Numbered from the stretch's first letter, positions 1 to 12,140 are shown. The stretch is 64,000 nt of DNA from an uncultured Methanosarcinales archaeon (GCA_963843555.1 CAWJKV010000018.1:32001-96000), one strand, 5' to 3'. A program made the numbers and translations. The notes: generated by a model not told the origin, from the letters alone.

Positions 1-260
1 ACCGGGATAAGTACGGTGTGGGCTCCAGCCTGGCAGAGACCATGCGTCTTGTAGGAAATGCTGCCAGCATGGCCCTCGTTACGGTTGGTTTCACCTTTTA
101 TCTGGGGGGATCGGTCATCTTGCCTGAAAATTACCCGGCTTTTCTGCAGAGCATGAGGTTGATACTGGCTGCCTTTTCGGTTCTTTGTATGGCCAGTTTG
201 CTCCTGATTCAGCTGGCTTCACACACAAGCCGCAAAAAAAAGATGACGGACGAAAGCTGA
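1..260 (+). CDS. MFS transporter, C-terminal fragment (5' end outside window)
   Basis: Frame reads ..DKYGVGSSLAETMRLVGNAASMALVT..FLQSMRLILAAFSVLC, typical of the last helices of DHA2-type MFS exporters. Confidence 0.65.
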   Translation, partial: RDKYGVGSSLAETMRLVGNAASMALVTVGFTFYLGGSVILPENYPAFLQSMRLILAAFSVLCMASLLLIQLASHTSRKKKMTDES

Positions 261-371
261 GGATCTCAACCTGATGAAATCCGGCGTTGAAATCATGATC
301 GGATTCTCAAATTCCGTCAAAATGCTTAAGTTGGTTGGAGTCAATAGAGTCAAGCTGATCAGGATCAATCT

Positions 372-1970
372 ATGAACGATAAATATCCCGGCTGTGATGT
401 CCTTCTTACGGGCTATGAAGATCATGAAAACCTGGGGCTGCGCTACATCGCCGCGTACCTCAGGGCGCATGGCATCAGAGCAGGGATGGAGCCCATGACC
501 AGGTCCTCGAACGACGACCTGATGGAGAGGATAAAAAGGGACAGTCCAAAGATAGTAGGGTTTTCCCTCATATTCCAGGGGATGTTCACCCAGTTCAAAG
601 ACCTCATCGGGCGGTTAAGAGATGAGGGCATTCGAGCCCACTTCACAATGGGAGGCCACTTCCCGACGCTGGACTACGAGAGAACTCTCGTACTGATGCC
701 TGGACTCGACACAGTTGTGCGTCATGAGGGCGAGGAGACGCTCCTCGAGCTTTACGAGAAGATCGACCGACCGGACCTCTGGCCGCAGATAAAAGGGCTG
801 GCATGGAGGCGTGGTGGAAAGATAGAGGCATCAGAGCCACGACCACTCATAGAGAACCTGGATCTGTTGCCTTTTCCGGTTAGAGATGCCGAGATGAAAA
901 CTCATATAGGAATGCCTGCAGCATCTATCCTATCGAGCCGGGGATGCAATTTTGACTGCAGCTTCTGCAGCATCCGCAGGTTCTATGGAAGCGCACCTGG
1001 CCCTCTCCGGCGCTCCCGATCTGCCAAGAACGTGGCAGACGAGATGGAGACCCTCTACGAAAATGGGGCCCGCATCTTCGACTTCAAGGATGACGACTTC
1101 GCTATGAAGGGCCGGTCGAGGAGCCGATGGATAGAGGACCTTGCGGGGGAGCTGGAGAGAAGGTCCCTTTCTGATGACATAATCCTGAAGGTAAGCTGCC
1201 GGATAGATGAGATCGAGAGCGAAGCGCTGCAGAGAATGAAAGAGATAGGCCTTGGTATGGTCTACCTGGGTATAGAGTCAGGCTCGGAGGGTGGTCTGAA
1301 GAGCTTTAACAAGCATTACGGCGTCGGCGAGATCCGCGAGACACTGCAGATCCTCCAGGCTATCCAGATGGGTTTTGAGTACGGCTTCATGATCATCGAG
1401 CCCTCTTCGAGCTTTGATTCCATCAGGGAGAACATCTCTTTTCTCCAGGAGCTGTGCAGGGGCGGTAGGGTCGTCGCCCATTTCGCCAGGACCTATCCCT
1501 ATGTCGGGACGGCTGTGGCTGCACGCCTCAAAGCGGAGGGAAGGCTTAAGGGAACTATAGACTACCCCGACTACAGCTACCTCGACGGCAGGATCGACCT
1601 CTTCGAGAGGTTCTTGAATAGGGCCTTTGGCCGATTTCTCTTCGAGACGCAAGGGCTCGTGAACCAGATACAAAACTCCTTCTGGAATGCTCTGCTCCTG
1701 CAGAGATTCGGCAGAGATTCCTACGATGTGGAGGGCTACACGAAGTACCTGATGATGCTCACGGAGAGGTGCAACAATTCTACACTGCTGGCTCTCTCGA
1801 GGGCAGTGGGCTACATGGAGGAGAGAAGCGAGGTCGAGATCCTGCGAGACTGGAAGGAGATGGAACTTGTCATCCAGGAAGTGCTGTTGGCCCAGTCCGG
1901 AATTGAGAAGCAACTGGACGTTCTGAACAGCACATATCACACCATGCCGGAGTTCTGGAAAGGGGTATAG
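372..1970 (+). CDS. Cobalamin-binding radical SAM enzyme (class B-like)
   Basis: N-terminal B12-binding domain (ENLGLRYIAAYL, IVGFS, GGHFPT, HEGEE) and SRGCNFDCSFC CxxxCxxC motif. Confidence 0.9.
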   Translation: MNDKYPGCDVLLTGYEDHENLGLRYIAAYLRAHGIRAGMEPMTRSSNDDLMERIKRDSPKIVGFSLIFQGMFTQFKDLIGRLRDEGIRAHFTMGGHFPTLDYERTLVLMPGLDTVVRHEGEETLLELYEKIDRPDLWPQIKGLAWRRGGKIEASEPRPLIENLDLLPFPVRDAEMKTHIGMPAASILSSRGCNFDCSFCSIRRFYGSAPGPLRRSRSAKNVADEMETLYENGARIFDFKDDDFAMKGRSRSRWIEDLAGELERRSLSDDIILKVSCRIDEIESEALQRMKEIGLGMVYLGIESGSEGGLKSFNKHYGVGEIRETLQILQAIQMGFEYGFMIIEPSSSFDSIRENISFLQELCRGGRVVAHFARTYPYVGTAVAARLKAEGRLKGTIDYPDYSYLDGRIDLFERFLNRAFGRFLFETQGLVNQIQNSFWNALLLQRFGRDSYDVEGYTKYLMMLTERCNNSTLLALSRAVGYMEERSEVEILRDWKEMELVIQEVLLAQSGIEKQLDVLNSTYHTMPEFWKGV

Positions 1971-1981
1971 AGATCTAGATT

Positions 1982-3335
1982 TTAAGGTCCTGGGATCTGA
2001 GGTTTAAGAGTCCAGGTCGGACAGCCTTCGATTACTACCTTTGGAGGAACGACCCTGAACAGCTCGCCTGTCTTCTGGCTGAGGGAGTAGAACCTGTAGA
2101 GCATCTCGACCTGAGCCTGGACGATATCTGTAAATGGTATGCCCACCCCATCCGGGAAGTAGTCTGCTCTCTTCTCATACAGCTCCGTTCCTGGCAGAAT
2201 GTCCAGGACATTGGGAAGCACTCTCGCCGAGGGCCTGGCCTCGTCTATGAACTGGAGGATCTGCCCGAGGGATTCGACAGTCTCACCCGGAAGCCCGAGG
2301 ATGAAGGAGCAGTGGGTCTTTATCCCCATCTCCTCGACCATGCGCACGATCTGCTTTGCCTGTTCTATGGAGAAGTCCTTTCGAATAGTGTCGAGGACCT
2401 TCTGGGAGGCGGATTCTATCCCGAAGAAGATCTCCTCGCACCCGGCATCCTTCATCGTCCCGACGAGGTCTTTGGAGAGGAGGTCTATTCTCGTGCTGCA
2501 CCCCCACTTAACGGGCACCTGCCTTCTCTTCATCTCGCTGCAGAGCCCCTCGACGCGATCCTTGCGCATGGTGAAGTTGTCATCCACGAAGGAGACGTTG
2601 TTTATCTTATACTTCTCCACGAGGTATTCAATCTCGTCCACGACCCTTGAGTTATCTCTGACCCGGTACTTCCTGCCGTGCAGGGATGCAGTCGAGCAGA
2701 AGATGCAGTTGAAGGGACAGCCCCTGGTGGTGATGACGGGCATGCACCTCACAGCGCCATTGCCGATGTAGGCCTCGGGCGTTGGATCGAGAAGGTGGTA
2801 CGCAGGAAAGGGGAGGCTGTCCAGATCTTCCATCCTCTCCCGCAGAGGCGTCGATACTATCCGGCTGCCGTCTCTGTAGGATATGCCGAGCACGTCTGTG
2901 GGAGTCCGGCCGCCTTCGAGGCTTTCTGCAATCTCAGTGAGGGCGTGCTCACCTTCATACCGGACAACAATATCGACTTCCGGCACTGATTTGAGGATCT
3001 CCTCGTGGGTGAATGTGGCATGCACGCCGCCCATGACGATTTTTATGCCGGGATCGTATGACTTTACTGCCTTCGCCACATCGACTGCATTTTTGTAGTT
3101 GGAAGAAAAGGATGTGATGCCGACGATATCCGGTTGGAACTGGGCAAGCCTCTTATTGAGGTCTCCGGGATGAAGGTTGAGCATGTCCATGTCCAGGATC
3201 CGGGCTAGAGAAGCCAGCCTCATCGAGGTATGCCGCAATGTAGCCCAGTCCTAAAGGAATACTTGCGATCTTCATGTAGCCTAAAGGTATCCTGCCGCCG
3301 GTCCAGTAATGTGGGTTGATGAGGAGGATCTTCAA
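1982..3335 (-). CDS. Cobalamin-binding radical SAM enzyme; frameshift near 3205 splits the N-terminus
   Basis: ORF 3153-3335 gives MKILLINP..PLGLGYIAAYL and ORF 1982-3238 continues RILDMD..GGVHAT..TRGCPFNCIFC. Confidence 0.9.
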
Positions 3336-3339
3336 AAAA

Positions 3340-3813
3340 TCACCCGGTTATATCCACGAGGTCGAGCTCCTCCAGGAGGAGAAGAAAGGAGAAGAGATCC
3401 CTTGTGAGAACGCTGCTCTGGACATTCGGCCAGAGGGTCTCAAGATCCGAGATGATGGTGCTTACACTCTTCTCGCCATCGCAGAGCCTGCAGACCTCGG
3501 ATCCCGTGCTGTTGATGAAGAAAGGAATGTAGGTGTCCGGGTGTATGCCCACGACCTGGCTGCCGCCGTCGATCCAGTACTTTCCGTGCCTTCTCACAGG
3601 ATGCTTGCCTGCGAACTCATCAAATCTGATGGTGATCCCCACACCGTCATCGGGGAAAGAGACCTGACAGTCGATCATCTTCTCCTGAGCAAGGACCTCG
3701 CCAATTCTCACCGCAAGCTCAGTCTTGATGTCTCCGGCATTCTTCGATCTTAAGGGAAAGATGGTTGCCACTGCAGGAGGGTCGTACTCAACGTCTGGGA
3801 GCACTCTTTTCAC
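3340..3813 (-). CDS. PqqD/RiPP recognition element (RRE) domain protein with N-terminal extension
   Basis: C-terminal FFINSTGSEVCRLCDGEKSVSTIISDL..LTRDLFSFLLLLEELDLV fits the PqqD winged-helix pattern (lN.tg..iw.l.DG..sv..i...L......D...fl..L....lv). Confidence 0.8.
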   Translation of the reverse strand: MKRVLPDVEYDPPAVATIFPLRSKNAGDIKTELAVRIGEVLAQEKMIDCQVSFPDDGVGITIRFDEFAGKHPVRRHGKYWIDGGSQVVGIHPDTYIPFFINSTGSEVCRLCDGEKSVSTIISDLETLWPNVQSSVLTRDLFSFLLLLEELDLVDITG

Positions 3814-3829
3814 TCCGCCGCTCTACTGC

Positions 3830-4222
3830 TCAGAAGGTCGTTTCGCGGAAGCAAGGCGCCGGGTCTACGATCACCGTCGTCCAGGGCTTTATTCTGATGG
3901 GTGCAATGATCGGGTTGATGACGATGCTCGACCACTGCGGGTAGTATCTGTCTATATCCTCGGCCGGGATATTCTTCAGGCTCTCTGTGACGAGGGCCGT
4001 GACCTTCTCCTTCAAGTCTATGGCTGCGTTCAGCCTTTCTTCAGGGTCGCTGTTTGCGGCCTTGACGTAAAGCTTTGCAACTTTCTGCATGAGCTCTTTG
4101 TTATCGGCCATCATGTTCATGATAGCTGACATCGTCTTGAGCTGGCGGACCTGCTCGCTTGTGACCTTGAAGTCGGGCAGCTTTCGCGCCGCCATCTTTT
4201 CAGGGGCATCTTCTTTTGGCAT
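3830..4222 (-). CDS. Hypothetical 130-aa protein, putative RiPP precursor peptide
   Basis: First gene of the precursor-RRE-rSAM unit (gaps 16 and 4 bp); charged helical N-terminus and Ile/Val/Pro/Trp-rich repeated C-terminus. Confidence 0.55.
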   Translation of the reverse strand: MPKEDAPEKMAARKLPDFKVTSEQVRQLKTMSAIMNMMADNKELMQKVAKLYVKAANSDPEERLNAAIDLKEKVTALVTESLKNIPAEDIDRYYPQWSSIVINPIIAPIRIKPWTTVIVDPAPCFRETTF

Positions 4223-4244
4223 AGAAGTATAATAGGCGGCGATA

Positions 4245-4286
4245 ACTTAAATTGTTTCTTGTATTTGAAATATGTATTTGAAATAC
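4245..4286 (-). promoter_or_regulatory. Putative TATA/BRE with adjacent tandem palindromic operator upstream of the precursor gene
   Basis: Minus strand AAGAAACAATTTAAGTT about 25-30 nt upstream of the ATG at 4222; TGTATTTGAAATA repeated at 4260-4272 and 4273-4285. Confidence 0.5.
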
Positions 4287-4333
4287 GTAATTGAGATTAG
4301 GTCGTGTGTGTAATGGTTTCCAATTAGCCTCGA

Positions 4334-4696
4334 TCACAAGAAAGTTATCTCAACAGGATCGCCTTCTTTCAGACCCAAAGCCCGGCGAAGTTGCACGGGC
4401 GCTATGACCTCCACCAAATCCGCTGGATAGCGGCTCCGCTCGGGCCGGACCACGGCGGCCTCGATGCCGTTCAGTCTGATGCGATAGCATTTGCACTCGC
4501 CAAAGCTCCGGCCCTCTTCCTGGAAGCCCTCGATCCGAATCGCCTGCAGCTCCGCCGGGAAAGGCTCCTCCAGCAGCACGTTCAGGGTGCCTGGGAAGGG
4601 GACAAAGCCCAGGTGCTGCAAGAACTGGCGGCTGTAGCCCTCACGGGATATGAAGTACTGGCCCTGACCCAGGCCCGCTGCAATTTTTCCGCGCAT
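4334..4696 (-). CDS. ribK: CTP-dependent riboflavin kinase (DUF120)
   Basis: GLGQGQYF, PFPGTLN, VVRPERS..EVIAPVQLR motifs. Confidence 0.9.
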   Translation of the reverse strand: MRGKIAAGLGQGQYFISREGYSRQFLQHLGFVPFPGTLNVLLEEPFPAELQAIRIEGFQEEGRSFGECKCYRIRLNGIEAAVVRPERSRYPADLVEVIAPVQLRRALGLKEGDPVEITFL

Positions 4697-4715: not shown

Positions 4716-4940
4716 TTAGATGAGATCTTGTAGTTCATCTCGACTTATATCCGCTTCTTTAAGAATTTTGCATAAGAGTTTTTTAGGTATATCATAACCG
4801 TGAAATGGAACTACCGTTACTAATTCTTTCTTATTATTATAGTATGTGTGATGGCTTCCAAGAATTCTTATTAAAGCAAATCCATCCTTTTCCAGGGCCT
4901 TTGCAAGTTCCTGAGGGGAGACGGATGGCAACTTAGGCAT
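4716..4940 (-). CDS. hicA: HicA-family mRNA interferase toxin
   Basis: MPKLPSVS..LEKDGF..GSHH..VVPFH..DIP..IL..A pattern. Confidence 0.88.
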   Translation of the reverse strand: MPKLPSVSPQELAKALEKDGFALIRILGSHHTYYNNKKELVTVVPFHGYDIPKKLLCKILKEADISRDELQDLI

Positions 4941-5166
4941 GAGCTTCAACTACTACTGTGTATTCGAATGTTCCTTCTTCCGTTGGAATTTCTTTTCCCA
5001 GGTCATGCAAGGTTTCAATATATACTTCTATGGCCTCTTTTGCCATCTCTACGGCTTCTTCCACAGTTTTTCCGAAGGTATTGCATCCTGGAAGGGTAGG
5101 TACCGAAGCGATATAAACACCTTCTTCCGGATCTTTTTTTATTATTACACGGTATTTCAGGGACAT
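4933..5166 (-). CDS. hicB: HicB-family antitoxin
   Basis: YIASVPTLPGCNTFGKTVEEAVEMAKEAI; overlaps the hicA start. Confidence 0.9.
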   Translation of the reverse strand: MSLKYRVIIKKDPEEGVYIASVPTLPGCNTFGKTVEEAVEMAKEAIEVYIETLHDLGKEIPTEEGTFEYTVVVEAHA

Positions 5167-5204
5167 AATCAATCCATCTATTGATCGATCTTGTATATCT
5201 ACAT

Positions 5205-8892: not shown

Positions 8893-10762
8893 TTAAGTTC
8901 GACGCTTGCACTGGATATCTTCATCGGACGGCATCATATAAGCTATGTCGTCTGCTGGATGGCGGTACAGCCTGGAGCCAAGCCTCTTTTGGTCCAGGAT
9001 ATGCCCGATCAGGCCGATGCTGCGACCGAGCGCAAATAGCCCATTCAGATAACCCAACCGCACGACCTCATCGATCTCCTCTTTGGTGAAAGCACCGCAT
9101 GAGGTCATCAGATCAATAAAGAGAATGCCGATGCAGCCGTCTACATTCAGGATCAGATTCCCCTTCTTGGCTGTGGTTAGCTCTTCCACCTGCAGGGCAT
9201 AGTTGAGAAGCTCCGTGCTGGGGAAATTCGCCCGGGCATAACTTATGAGCAGTTGGACCCGCTTGTCGGGGTTCTTGACGCTCTTGATCTTGTGGCCGAT
9301 GCCAGGAATGTTGATGCCCTTCTTCTTCATCTCTTTCACGAACTGCTCGGGAGCAAGATCAGTCTCGCGAGCGTGCTTGAACTCGCGGGCTGCATCATCG
9401 ATGGCCCCGCCAAAACGCGGACCTATGGTCAATAGGCCGCTGCATAGTGACGAGATGAGATCCTTTCCGGCACACGAGGCCACAATGGCATTATGAGCCC
9501 CGGATACGGCCGGACCGTGGTCCGCCACGATCTGAAGGACCAGTTCGATGAAATGAGAGGCATAGTCCGGCAGCTCCTTCTTGAACCAGAGCAGGCCAAC
9601 AACCCCTCCGATGCCCATCTTCTGGCCCAGAACATCGGAGAGCTTCTTGCCCGCATAGAGCACCTCTTCGCCGCTGTCATCGGAGACGGTGCAGATGAAG
9701 GTGGTGGGCTTGCGAATATCGCCCGATGCAAGCGCTTTGCTGTAGTCGCTGGGAATTTTGGGAACCTCGGGCTCTTCAAATTGCAGAACCACGCCTTTGG
9801 CCAGCAGCATCTCGTATACACGGCGCACAGTCTCGCCATAGTCATCGAATGATGTCAGGCACATAAGCTCCCGCCTCGCGGAAAGCATCGTTCTTGGCCT
9901 GAGCGGTCTCCTTGTGAGAATCGGCCTTGGCACCGGCATGGCCGAACTGAACGCTGGCCGGCAGGAACGGCGAGCAGGTACCTGTTACCCATGCTACCAG
10001 CGGCTTTTTGATCTTTCCCTCTTTCAGGGCCTGAATGATCTTATACTCGTCTTCGCCGCCCAGTTCGCCAAGACAGGCAATCATCTTGATGGCAGGGTTT
10101 TGTTCGTAACGCAGGATGTGGTCGAGCAAGGTCGATCCTGGATAGCGATCTCCTCCGATGGCCACTCCTTCGTAAATGCCGTCCGAATTTCTGGAGATGA
10201 TGTTGAAGGCCTCGTTGAGCATGCCTCCCGATTTGGAGACGAAACCTACACATCCCGGCCGGTAGAGCTTGGAGGCGATGATATTCTCGATGGTCCCTGC
10301 AGTATTGCCGATACGGAAGGCCCCCGCGGTCATGCCGCCCACTGTGGCCGGACCGATGACGATCTTATGGAGCTCTCTGGCTGTGGCACTCATGACACGA
10401 GACTGCCTCTCCGGCACGCCCTCCGCAATTACGGCCACGGTTCGAATGGTCTTCTCCTGCAATGCCTCCATGGTGGTCTCGAAGGCGGAACGGTGACTGG
10501 CAAAGTTCACCATTACATCGGCTTCTGGATAAGCCTTGGCCGCCAGCGAGATGGTCTTATACATGGGCAGAATGATCTCTTTAGTTCCCCAGAATGCCTT
10601 ATGAATGCCGGCTCTGCTGGGATTGATTATGGCAGAGATGCTAGGCGATTCACGTTTGCAGATGTAGTCGAAGTCCAGCATGCGCTGGATGGCATTGGTC
10701 TGATAGCCGTAGACGAATGCTTTGGTGTCTTTATCAAAGAGAACGTATTCTTTCCTGCTCAT
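8893..10762 (-). CDS. aclA: ATP citrate lyase subunit A; frameshift near 9850-9860
   Basis: CoA-binding/SCS-alpha domain (SKSGGM.NE, QFGHAGA) in 9842-10762 joined to the citrate synthase-like domain ([21 protein letters not shown]) in 8893-9939. Confidence 0.92.
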
Positions 10763-12027
10763 TGAGATGCACCTTCCAGGGCCAGGGGAACAATTCTCGT
10801 CATATGGGTCTCGGGTCCATGAACTTCAATGGGCACGCCAAGCCTTCGGCCCAGGTCGCGCATGAGCCTCAAGCCCTGCTCATAATTGGGGCCGCCTCTG
10901 CGCACGTAGATCTTGATACCAGCTTCTTGGAGCAATTCCTTGTACTCCTCCAGGGCCATTGTTACGCCCTTGAAAGTCTTGGCGACATCAGTGAAGTTGG
11001 CAATAGCGCCTCCAATGAGCAGCACCTTTCCTCTGGGGTCCTTTTGGCGCGTCATCAAATCCAGAATTGTCCTGGTGTAGTAGTAAGTCTCCTCGGTGTT
11101 GGGGTCTCCGCTGTATTCGCCATAGTTGGCCATTTCTTTTGCGAATCCCAGATCACAGATCGTATCGGCATAGATCACGCTCGCGCCACCACCTGCAACC
11201 ATAGTCCAGACCCTCCCTTCCGGATTGAGAATGGTCAACTTCAAAGAGGCACCTGTCTTGGAGTCGAGATCCTTGATGAACAATTCCTCTTTGGAGAGAC
11301 TCCTTCCGAAGGGCTCGGGGAAAGCAAGATCGTGCCATCGTTTCCTCTGCCAGTACTCCTCAGCGTCGTCAAGCTTGGCCACCATATCCAGAGGCACAAT
11401 AGCACCGTTATGGAATGTGAAGGGATTGATCTCCAGGTAAGCGAAACCCGTCTCTTTGTAAAACTGCCAGAGAGCTCGGATGAAATTTTCCACGGCAAGT
11501 TTTTTCTCCCCGAGGCTCGCCGGCAGCTTTGACTTGATATCTAAGTCCTCTATTCCTGCCAGGACATCTGCATGCACCCGAACGACCTTGTCCCAATTCT
11601 CCTCCACAGAGACGCCGCCTTGCGTAGAGAAGAATACATTATCGCCATCATAGTCAGAGCTGATAGCTACATAGAACTCCTCGTCATGGGGTATGAAAGG
11701 TTCAATCAGAAAATGAGAGAGCCTTCCGGTGATGCCCCCTAAGACCACCTCAGAACCCATGTTCTCTTTAAGGTACTTCTTCGCCCGATTCCAGTCTGAG
11801 TCCAGCAGAACCAGCCCGTGTTTGCCTCTCTTTCCAAAGAGCTGGTCCGGCTTGACCACAAGCCTTGACGTCTTCAGCCATGGATTAAGAGATACGAGCT
11901 CCTCCAGATCCGTCTCCGGTCCCACCAGGGCGAGATTCCCTTTGTAGGAGAATTCATTGAGGTACTCGGGAAGGTATCTGGCCAACAAACGTTTTGCATC
12001 GTACTCCCTAATGCCTCTCTGTGCCAT
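10759..12027 (-). CDS. aclB: ATP citrate lyase subunit B
   Basis: MAQRGIREYDAK, VKPDQLFGKRGK, MVAGGGASVIYAD, GGAIANFTDVA, RRGGPNY. Confidence 0.93.
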   Translation of the reverse strand: MAQRGIREYDAKRLLARYLPEYLNEFSYKGNLALVGPETDLEELVSLNPWLKTSRLVVKPDQLFGKRGKHGLVLLDSDWNRAKKYLKENMGSEVVLGGITGRLSHFLIEPFIPHDEEFYVAISSDYDGDNVFFSTQGGVSVEENWDKVVRVHADVLAGIEDLDIKSKLPASLGEKKLAVENFIRALWQFYKETGFAYLEINPFTFHNGAIVPLDMVAKLDDAEEYWQRKRWHDLAFPEPFGRSLSKEELFIKDLDSKTGASLKLTILNPEGRVWTMVAGGGASVIYADTICDLGFAKEMANYGEYSGDPNTEETYYYTRTILDLMTRQKDPRGKVLLIGGAIANFTDVAKTFKGVTMALEEYKELLQEAGIKIYVRRGGPNYEQGLRLMRDLGRRLGVPIEVHGPETHMTRIVPLALEGASQ

Positions 12028-12140
12028 GTCCAAAACCACCTTCGCCGCCTTAATGTTTTTCTTATTTACAAACCTTTCTAGAGGCCGAGGTGCCGGATAG
12101 TTGGGCAAATGTTGAAGTACTCAAGTGAGACTGGGATCAT

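Follow-up and report, generated by a model that had tools for sequence, protein, structure and literature searches.

A rare, mobile gene cassette of methane-cycling archaea with the probable anatomy of a B12-dependent radical SAM peptide-modification system

The window analysed here, a 64,000-nucleotide stretch from the genome of an uncultured, presumably Methanothrix-like Methanosarcinales archaeon (GCA_963843555.1, CAWJKV010000018.1:32001-96000), carries at its left end a cassette of four genes between a major facilitator superfamily (MFS) transporter gene and ribK (Table 1). Three of them form a tight minus-strand unit with intergenic gaps of 16 and 4 bp, encoding a putative precursor, a stand-alone protein with the PqqD-like fold of a recognition element (RRE) for peptides that are made on ribosomes and modified after translation (RiPPs), and a B12-binding radical S-adenosylmethionine (SAM) enzyme that we call rSAM B. 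A second enzyme of this kind, rSAM A, reads towards rSAM B across an 11-bp gap. A preliminary description of the window had placed both small genes, rSAM A and the convergent gap correctly.

Table 1 Features of the cassette and its flanks, in window positions
Feature	Position	Strand	Remarks
Putative precursor/substrate, 130 aa	3830..4222	-	helical leader, residues 1-96, and variable tail
R13-V20 leader motif	4163..4186	-	candidate RRE recognition sequence
Hypervariable tail from Trp97	3833..3934	-	putative core; rich in Trp, Pro, Ile, Tyr, Arg
D120-P-A-P123	3854..3865	-	predicted rSAM A target, from motif co-occurrence
Stand-alone RRE/PqqD-fold protein, 157 aa	3340..3813	-	RRE domain ~70-157 and conserved N-terminal extension
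Y10-x-x-P13-x-V15, N terminus of RRE protein	3769..3786	-	resembles lasso leader motif YxxPxL
rSAM B, B12-binding and radical SAM	1982..3335	-	constant partner; frameshifted in assembly near 3205-3207
rSAM A, B12-binding and radical SAM, 532 aa	372..1970	+	optional, convergent; DP-peptide clade member
TATA-like box, ~29 nt before precursor start	4246-4251	-	probable promoter, judged from sequence
Two tandem 13-bp palindromes preceding the TATA-like box	4261-4273, 4274-4286	-	probable operator, putative function
MFS transporter, 3' end	1..260	+	left flank, outside cassette; PF07690
ribK, CTP-dependent riboflavin kinase	4334..4696	-	right flank, outside cassette

A profile search with the RRE protein through 392 genomes of the class recovered five carriers: the source genome (G000), two others of its genus (G080 and G035) and two Ca. 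Methanoperedens genomes (L010/L016 and L011). The order precursor-RRE-rSAM B recurs in all five, in one case split across two contig ends. Among ten metagenome loci, three of which repeat the L011 sequence, the precursor gene is followed by the RRE gene in all ten and then by rSAM B in nine, the tenth contig stopping within the RRE gene. This order is retained despite precursor identities of only 26-48%; such recurrence is far beyond chance, and it bears out the earlier proposal that precursor, RRE and B12-binding radical SAM enzyme are a unit. The second radical SAM enzyme, proposed as a further member, is one at only part of the loci: convergent gaps of 11 bp separate its gene from rSAM B in the window and in L011, and one of 7 bp in L016; in G080 it lies at a distance of 4.5 kb. 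G035, a genome 99% complete, lacks it, and neither the 8-kb flanks of L023 nor the short flank of L027 contain it. An early idea that rSAM A was unrelated did not hold.

The cassette is real, rare and mobile. Six other genomes contain an MFS ortholog (70-83% identity), and of these G080 alone carries the cassette. In G087 and G081 the MFS gene directly abuts ribK, joining window positions ~244 and ~4331; the cassette is thus an insertion of ~4 kb between the two genes. With just 30 letters on one of its sides, a further joint (X3, 312-4350) lends support at most. The transporter itself is a real gene (471 amino acids, window -1155..260); its proposed role as the cassette's exporter did not survive, since it abuts ribK without the cassette in those two genomes. 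The G035 copy groups with a locus on a Methanosarcina contig (L023, assigned by an L21e cluster), and not with the window, in the leader (100/99), RRE (98/94) and rSAM B (99/98) trees, and an integrase adjoins the L011 cassette, which together indicate horizontal movement. One homolog carries the name Ca. Thorarchaeota (P0020), and L026-L028 may, as a guess, come from Bathyarchaeia. Relatives of rSAM A or the RRE protein were not found on viral contigs, plasmids gave only generic matches at ~30%, and a 401-genome sample of the phylum returned only the source genome, one weak match within an 820-amino-acid frame being dropped.

Upstream of the precursor gene, the perfect palindrome is the only such sequence in the genome; the pair is kept in G080 and not in distant loci. 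Contigs from two RNA runs overlap parts of all four genes, an overlap that, lacking a silent control stretch and because contigs cannot rank expression, is not counted as proof of transcription.

Thirty homologs of the 130-amino-acid protein were aligned, with a conserved leader of 82-105 residues and a tail of 21-62 residues. An LP[ED]F[KR]I-type motif near the N terminus occurs in 28 of them, P16 and F18 being conserved in at least 90%; helices are predicted at residues 22-93, and the predicted local distance difference test score (pLDDT) of the structure model is 85-93 across residues 21-90 and ~40-50 in the tail. Trp97, invariant in the family, marks the start of the tail, with [FY]-x-x-W at the junction in 23/30. 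Tryptophan makes up 10.7% of tail residues versus 0.1% of leader residues; the tails are further rich in Pro (13.4%), Ile (10.8%), Arg (9.0%) and Tyr (7.8%), Pro and Arg being present in every one, and Cys (0.9%) occurs in eight, never more than twice. In the 199 pairs that lie farthest apart, the tails are no more similar (identity 0.25) than shuffled sequences are (0.23). Close relatives differ more by synonymous than by non-synonymous codons (three to none over residues 97-126 against G080, nine to five in the tails of L024 and L025), so the tail is translated under constraint. An extra base near 3833 changes the last precursor codons in the window; close relatives have 132 amino acids.

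In the P0024 tail a 14-residue unit is duplicated, and it recurs partly in P0029, which suggests repeated core units. Across 11 loci, RRE identity follows leader identity (Spearman 0.82) and not tail identity (0.07); the leader and RRE trees agree and the loci are related, so shared ancestry adds to the 0.82. Taken together, the sequences point to a leader/core anatomy for the family, with a leader folded as in proteusins, and, as the definition of RiPPs asks, the enzymes stand beside the gene of a precursor whose leader is conserved and whose core varies. Pfam has no family at cut-off for any of the 30 members; weak matches to BCCIP, DUF507 and AvrBs1 (E 0.005) were rejected as noise from helical composition. 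A fold search with the precursor model gave unrelated helical proteins at best (Z 5.8, uninformative), and the ESM Atlas had no usable match for the precursor or for a DPAP peptide of the kind described below.

Because the cassette is accompanied by neither a protease nor an exporter, the main rival explanation is a post-translational modification of a protein and not a RiPP: the 130-amino-acid protein would be modified in its tail and act inside the cell, uncleaved and unexported, like the modifications of MCR or like CrpA. Its enzymology is that of our preferred explanation; what sets it apart is solely what becomes of the product. The confidently predicted helical domain of the leader fits it, the conserved junction motif could be structural packing, and methanogens offer a precedent in Methanococcus voltae, where, according to PMC13692751, the SPASM enzyme CrpC cross-links the Cys-rich protein CrpA. 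We nevertheless consider it unlikely: the tail diverges to the level of shuffled sequence while the leader is kept, a tail unit has been duplicated in P0024, and long folded leaders are also known from proteusins (PMC10858898).

The preliminary description had called the 157-amino-acid protein PqqD-like, and profile comparison agrees: it matches PF05402 at 28.2 bits against a cut-off of 23.4, and 17/17 homologs match this family at E<=0.1. Its model has the three strands (80-82, 87-90, 97-100) and three helices (102-110, 117-127, 133-149) by which RREs are recognized. The closest fold is that of the lasso B1 protein TbiB1 (PDB 5v1u/5v1v; Z 10.8, root-mean-square deviation 1.9 over 84 residues, 1.9-2.1 when 6jx3 is included); the Foldseek E value is only 0.009. 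The N-terminal extension carries YxxPx[VI] in 16 of 17 homologs (all 17 if Phe is allowed) versus 15 of 2256 ORFs (open reading frames) in the genome, and a strand is predicted at residues 15-17. Lasso leaders of actinobacteria bear YxxPxL, and it is reported that YxxP, together with a conserved Leu, occupies the B1 cleft (PMC6784204).

One RRE cleft would accordingly have, on this sequence evidence, two candidate ligands, its own YxxPxV arm and the P-x-F motif of the precursor. The cleft may be autoinhibited until the arm is displaced, or permanently filled and docking the enzyme. A complex prediction of the RRE protein with precursor residues 1-100 scored 0.00 in two runs and is not counted for or against binding. 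An alternative reading of the same arm makes the 157-amino-acid protein a fusion of leader and RRE and itself the substrate, its arm filling the cleft and residues ~19-65 being modified by rSAM B, with the 130-amino-acid protein as a partner or a substrate of rSAM A only. The near-universal motif and the kinship of the fold to a family that binds YxxPxL speak for this, as do the conservation of T17, S23 and D28 and low pLDDT at 19-32 and 46-59. The candidate segment is conserved and not hypervariable, however, and the 130-amino-acid gene is kept at loci without rSAM A (L006, L023, L027), so that it needs a role with rSAM B; we regard this alternative as quite improbable.

A bolder version of the preferred reading, which we offer tentatively, is a self-leadered adaptor. 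The cis YxxPxV would make the RRE a gated or pre-loaded dock for a folded leader, and the cassette would be a new archaeal RiPP class arising by module capture, one lineage adding an enzyme of the DP-peptide family and placing its target motif in the hypervariable tail. Two unrelated B12 enzymes would then introduce a new kind of modification, perhaps something other than methylation, at Asp-Pro-x-Pro and in stretches rich in Trp, Ile and Pro.

Positions 1982-3335 (1354 bp) had been described as one gene for a B12-binding radical SAM enzyme. The domains stand: PF02310 and PF04055 are matched above cut-off by the piece 1982-3238, as they are by rSAM A. The single ORF does not, because one surplus base near 3205-3207, relative to the intact 456-amino-acid gene of G080 (locus L005), splits the sequence into ORFs of 60 (3153-3335) and 418 amino acids (1982-3238). 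The CxxxCxxC motif is intact in every A and B enzyme read, rSAM B being complete only in relatives; a further surplus base lies near 4225. The cassette is intact in G080, on a Methanosarcina contig and, as three genes, in G035, whose genome belongs to the same genus and is almost complete.

The frameshift is very probably an assembly error, because contigs of relatives (from runs on relatives and not on the source strain) are free of surplus bases at 3205-3207, ~3833 and 4225, frame changes affect 4 of the 22 genes that were tested in the assembly (82% complete; rSAM B included), and rSAM B differs from its G080 counterpart by 56 synonymous and 15 non-synonymous codons. If the frameshift were real, the cassette would be decaying in the source genome, a matter separate from the function of the family. 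Two frame-changing insertions within 2.3 kb and a broken rSAM A ortholog in G686 would fit such decay, and the runs compared share at best 0.38 of their words with the source strain; the same three observations on contigs, tested genes and codons make it correspondingly unlikely.

We scored rSAM A and rSAM B of the window and the intact rSAM B of L005 against NCBIfam families, among them ApyD, BchE, HpnJ, TsrM, QCMT and TIGR03975. The best match of rSAM B is ApyD (NF050148) at 232 of 750 bits, with BchE, HpnJ, BzaD and HpnR nearly as high; that of rSAM A is BchE at 112 of 481 bits. A lower-ligand comparison with TokK gave nothing diagnostic.

A search of the class for relatives of rSAM A found such enzymes in 18 of 392 genomes at E<=1e-50, with three candidates scored per genome. 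The nearest paralog in the source genome (C5:272235-275436) precedes a gene for a 463-amino-acid protein with 12 EP[AV]H sites, from which we predicted, ahead of testing, that the clade would stand beside [DE]-P-x-[PH] peptides and target acid-Pro-x-[PH], and that D-P-[AG]-P tails would occur only with rSAM A. Eight stand-alone orthologs were found, seven at 48-51% identity and one split (41% and 58%). At seven of these loci, genes for DPAP, DPVD or DPVN peptides with a C-terminal helix lie directly upstream; the eighth holds a broken enzyme and a follower-like remnant. These DP peptides have 69-129 amino acids (L085:4283-7736, L087-L090, L091:5673-7730, L092), and G022 has a row of such genes. 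Six more distant enzymes (33-35% identity) all precede EPAH-repeat proteins (6/6 loci, L080 and L094-L097 among them), and one in G697 (36%) adjoins an NHLP-clan peptide. In a tree of 17 unbroken A-type enzymes and six outgroup rows, with the broken G686 and G102 sequences left out, the cassette rSAM A nests inside the DP clade (99/98), itself sister to the EPAH clade (97/96). Six DP peptides tested matched no NCBIfam family at cut-off, and their follower helix has no homology to the precursor or the RRE extension. By sequence and gene order, the pairs of DP peptide and rSAM A ortholog would be undescribed two-part systems.

Within the cassette the tail prediction also held: D-P-[AG]-P is present in the tail at 4/4 loci with rSAM A and 0/3 without, and in 6 of 30 tails overall, against a chance of 0.0006-0.002 for a 34-amino-acid tail. 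The four cassette rSAM A enzymes have no DP peptide gene upstream; the motif stands instead in the precursor tail. These relatives also bear on another possibility, in which the substrate of the enzymes would be a lipid, a cofactor or some small molecule and the two small proteins would be accessory or regulatory. RRE-like folds occur in protein methyltransferases and other non-RiPP proteins too, and the models of four enzyme families other than ApyD score nearly like it. In the two clades, however, 13 of the 14 loci read link a relative of rSAM A to motif-repeat peptides, and no small-molecule pathway genes travel with the cassette, which leaves this possibility highly improbable.

Two further arrangements were seen at these loci. 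In G697, L093:2052-7590 combines a gene for an NHLP-clan peptide of the Os1348 family (NF038399 above cut-off) with three radical SAM genes, a separate archaeal RiPP candidate. At L087:8376-9830 and L090:12355-13853, a gene for a 72-amino-acid Cys-rich peptide precedes a radical SAM gene, near genes for M10/astacin-type peptidases and the DP-peptide pair.

The tests run distinguish the cassette from the systems that it most resembles. Like ApyD of the aminopyruvatide pathway, it joins a B12-binding radical SAM enzyme and an RRE acting on a ribosomal precursor; its RRE is stand-alone where that of ApyD is fused, it lacks a P450, an MNIO and a methyltransferase, its precursor is unrelated, and it is archaeal. 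With proteusins it would share a long, partly folded leader and, with the polytheonamide (PoyB, PoyC) and bottromycin (BotRMT1-3) pathways, the division of one hydrophobic core among several radical SAM enzymes of class B. In contrast to proteusins, neither NHLP nor Nif11 is among the 25 Pfam families listed for the 30 precursors, the window protein has no such match in NCBIfam, and a profile comparison with an NHLP-clan peptide gives 0.6%. The epimerase, YcaO, peptidase and transporter of the proteusin and bottromycin systems are also missing, and TIGR03975 reaches 129 of 282 bits. Lasso systems share the RRE fold and a YxxPxL-type motif, but in the cassette the motif is on the RRE protein itself, no cyclase gene occurs at the loci, and the B2 peptidase (PF13471, the sole peptidase family searched genome-wide) was found in 0/5 carrier genomes, the control being positive in 2/14.

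Crp, Mmp10 and QCMT likewise represent radical SAM modification of gene-encoded proteins in methanogens; the cassette differs from Crp and ranthipeptides in having no SPASM (PF13186) match and Cys-poor tails, and from QCMT in a TIGR04014 score of 115 of 360 bits. Six kilobases from the G080 cassette, L005:1195-3573 (-) holds a radical SAM/SPASM gene and, after it, a gene whose membrane-protein product has a poly-Gly stretch and a Cys-Ala repeat; the two may form a Crp-like system. The nearest relative of the rSAM A module, the EPAH-repeat protein with its B12-binding radical SAM enzyme, has one copy in the source genome and shares an acid-Pro-small motif; enzyme identity is 33-35%, the EPAH substrate is larger and repetitive, and neither an RRE nor a second such enzyme is present there. 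Pyrroloquinoline quinone (PQQ) synthesis, which the preliminary description had discounted, finds no support either: no pqq genes lie beside the RRE at any locus read, and in the source genome (82% complete) nothing exceeds the cut-off of the PqqE model or is found with the PqqC model, whose control is silent too. These tests set the cassette outside the proteusin, lasso, aminopyruvatide and Crp systems, and no finding suggests PQQ. The literature searched has no description of it; supplementary tables of the RRE-Finder type were outside the search and may list its proteins. It is apparently an undescribed archaeal peptide-modification system.

Our preferred explanation, to which we give a probability of roughly two in three, is that a horizontally moving, RRE-dependent RiPP-type peptide-modification cassette lies between the MFS gene and ribK. 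Precursor, RRE protein and rSAM B would be co-transcribed from the promoter region at 4246-4286, and rSAM A separately, towards them. The RRE protein would bind the folded leader at the R13-V20 motif, at the helices or at both, and present the flexible tail to rSAM B; its YxxPxV arm may rest in the cleft until displaced, or stay as a built-in leader. With SAM and methylcobalamin, rSAM B would C-methylate unactivated carbons of the tail, our best guess being Ile, Val or Pro or an aromatic beta-carbon near Trp97. rSAM A, recruited from the DP-peptide enzyme family, would modify D120-P-A-P123, most likely by methylating Pro or Asp. As no dedicated protease or exporter is found, the product may be trimmed by housekeeping proteases or be active uncleaved. 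It is possible, though doubtful, that its role is that of a hydrophobic, Arg-bearing, membrane-active peptide whose hydrophobicity is raised by methylation.

Given such a system, analogy makes methylation the somewhat favoured chemistry, because characterized relatives methylate residues: class B RiPP enzymes (BotRMT1-3, PoyB/C, TsrM) act on Phe, Val, Pro, Ile, Met or Trp (PMC11285071), ApyD beta-methylates Tyr (10.1101/2023.10.30.564719), and in methanogens residues of proteins are methylated by Mmp10 and QCMT (PMC13469106).

Several findings weigh against the preferred explanation. According to 10.1101/2023.10.30.564719, B12-binding radical SAM enzymes also form C-S and C-P bonds and contract or close rings, and rSAM A and rSAM B reach the cut-off of no named NCBIfam family of such enzymes; being far below all of these cut-offs, they cannot be assigned methylation by homology. 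At the loci read, conservation of the cassette extends to no protease, exporter or immunity gene, and there is no cleavage motif that can be recognized. A protease had been suggested to lie left of the window; none was seen, by inspection, among ORFs read up to 20 kb in that direction. There is one precursor copy per genome. Beyond Trp97 every tail position varies, which leaves rSAM B with no defined target. For rSAM A, the four loci with motif and enzyme are two pairs of relatives and possibly reflect one gain (83/94), and P0017 and P0018, near the Methanoperedens precursors, have only D-x-x-P. The C-terminal follower helix of DP peptides is missing from cassette precursors (hhalign probability 1.9%), which leaves recognition of these precursors by rSAM A unexplained.

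Other features of the surroundings are recorded here. To the right, two small ORFs of 77 and 79 amino acids at 4716-5172 (-) look by inspection like a HicA/HicB pair, and ATP-citrate lyase genes occupy 8893-12108 (-), the second subunit apparently split (9842-10762 and 8893-9939), possibly by another assembly frameshift. To the left of the window, G000:C18:1-23400 has a GC content of 0.60-0.70 and bacterial-looking genes, and meets archaeal sequence (GC ~0.5) beside a truncated gene; it is probably a chimeric contig or a large insertion.

To our knowledge, few peptide-modifying pathways have been characterized in methane-cycling archaea. The cassette yields specific predictions, namely a four-residue target for one enzyme and versions with and without the second enzyme in nature, so that its chemistry is open to direct test, and the DP peptides, with their 69-129 amino acids, offer small natural test substrates. 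An RRE with a built-in leader motif would, if true, be a new mode of substrate gating. Two or three undescribed subfamilies of B12-binding radical SAM enzymes (rSAM B, the DP type and the EPAH type) may extend C-H methylation to new residues.

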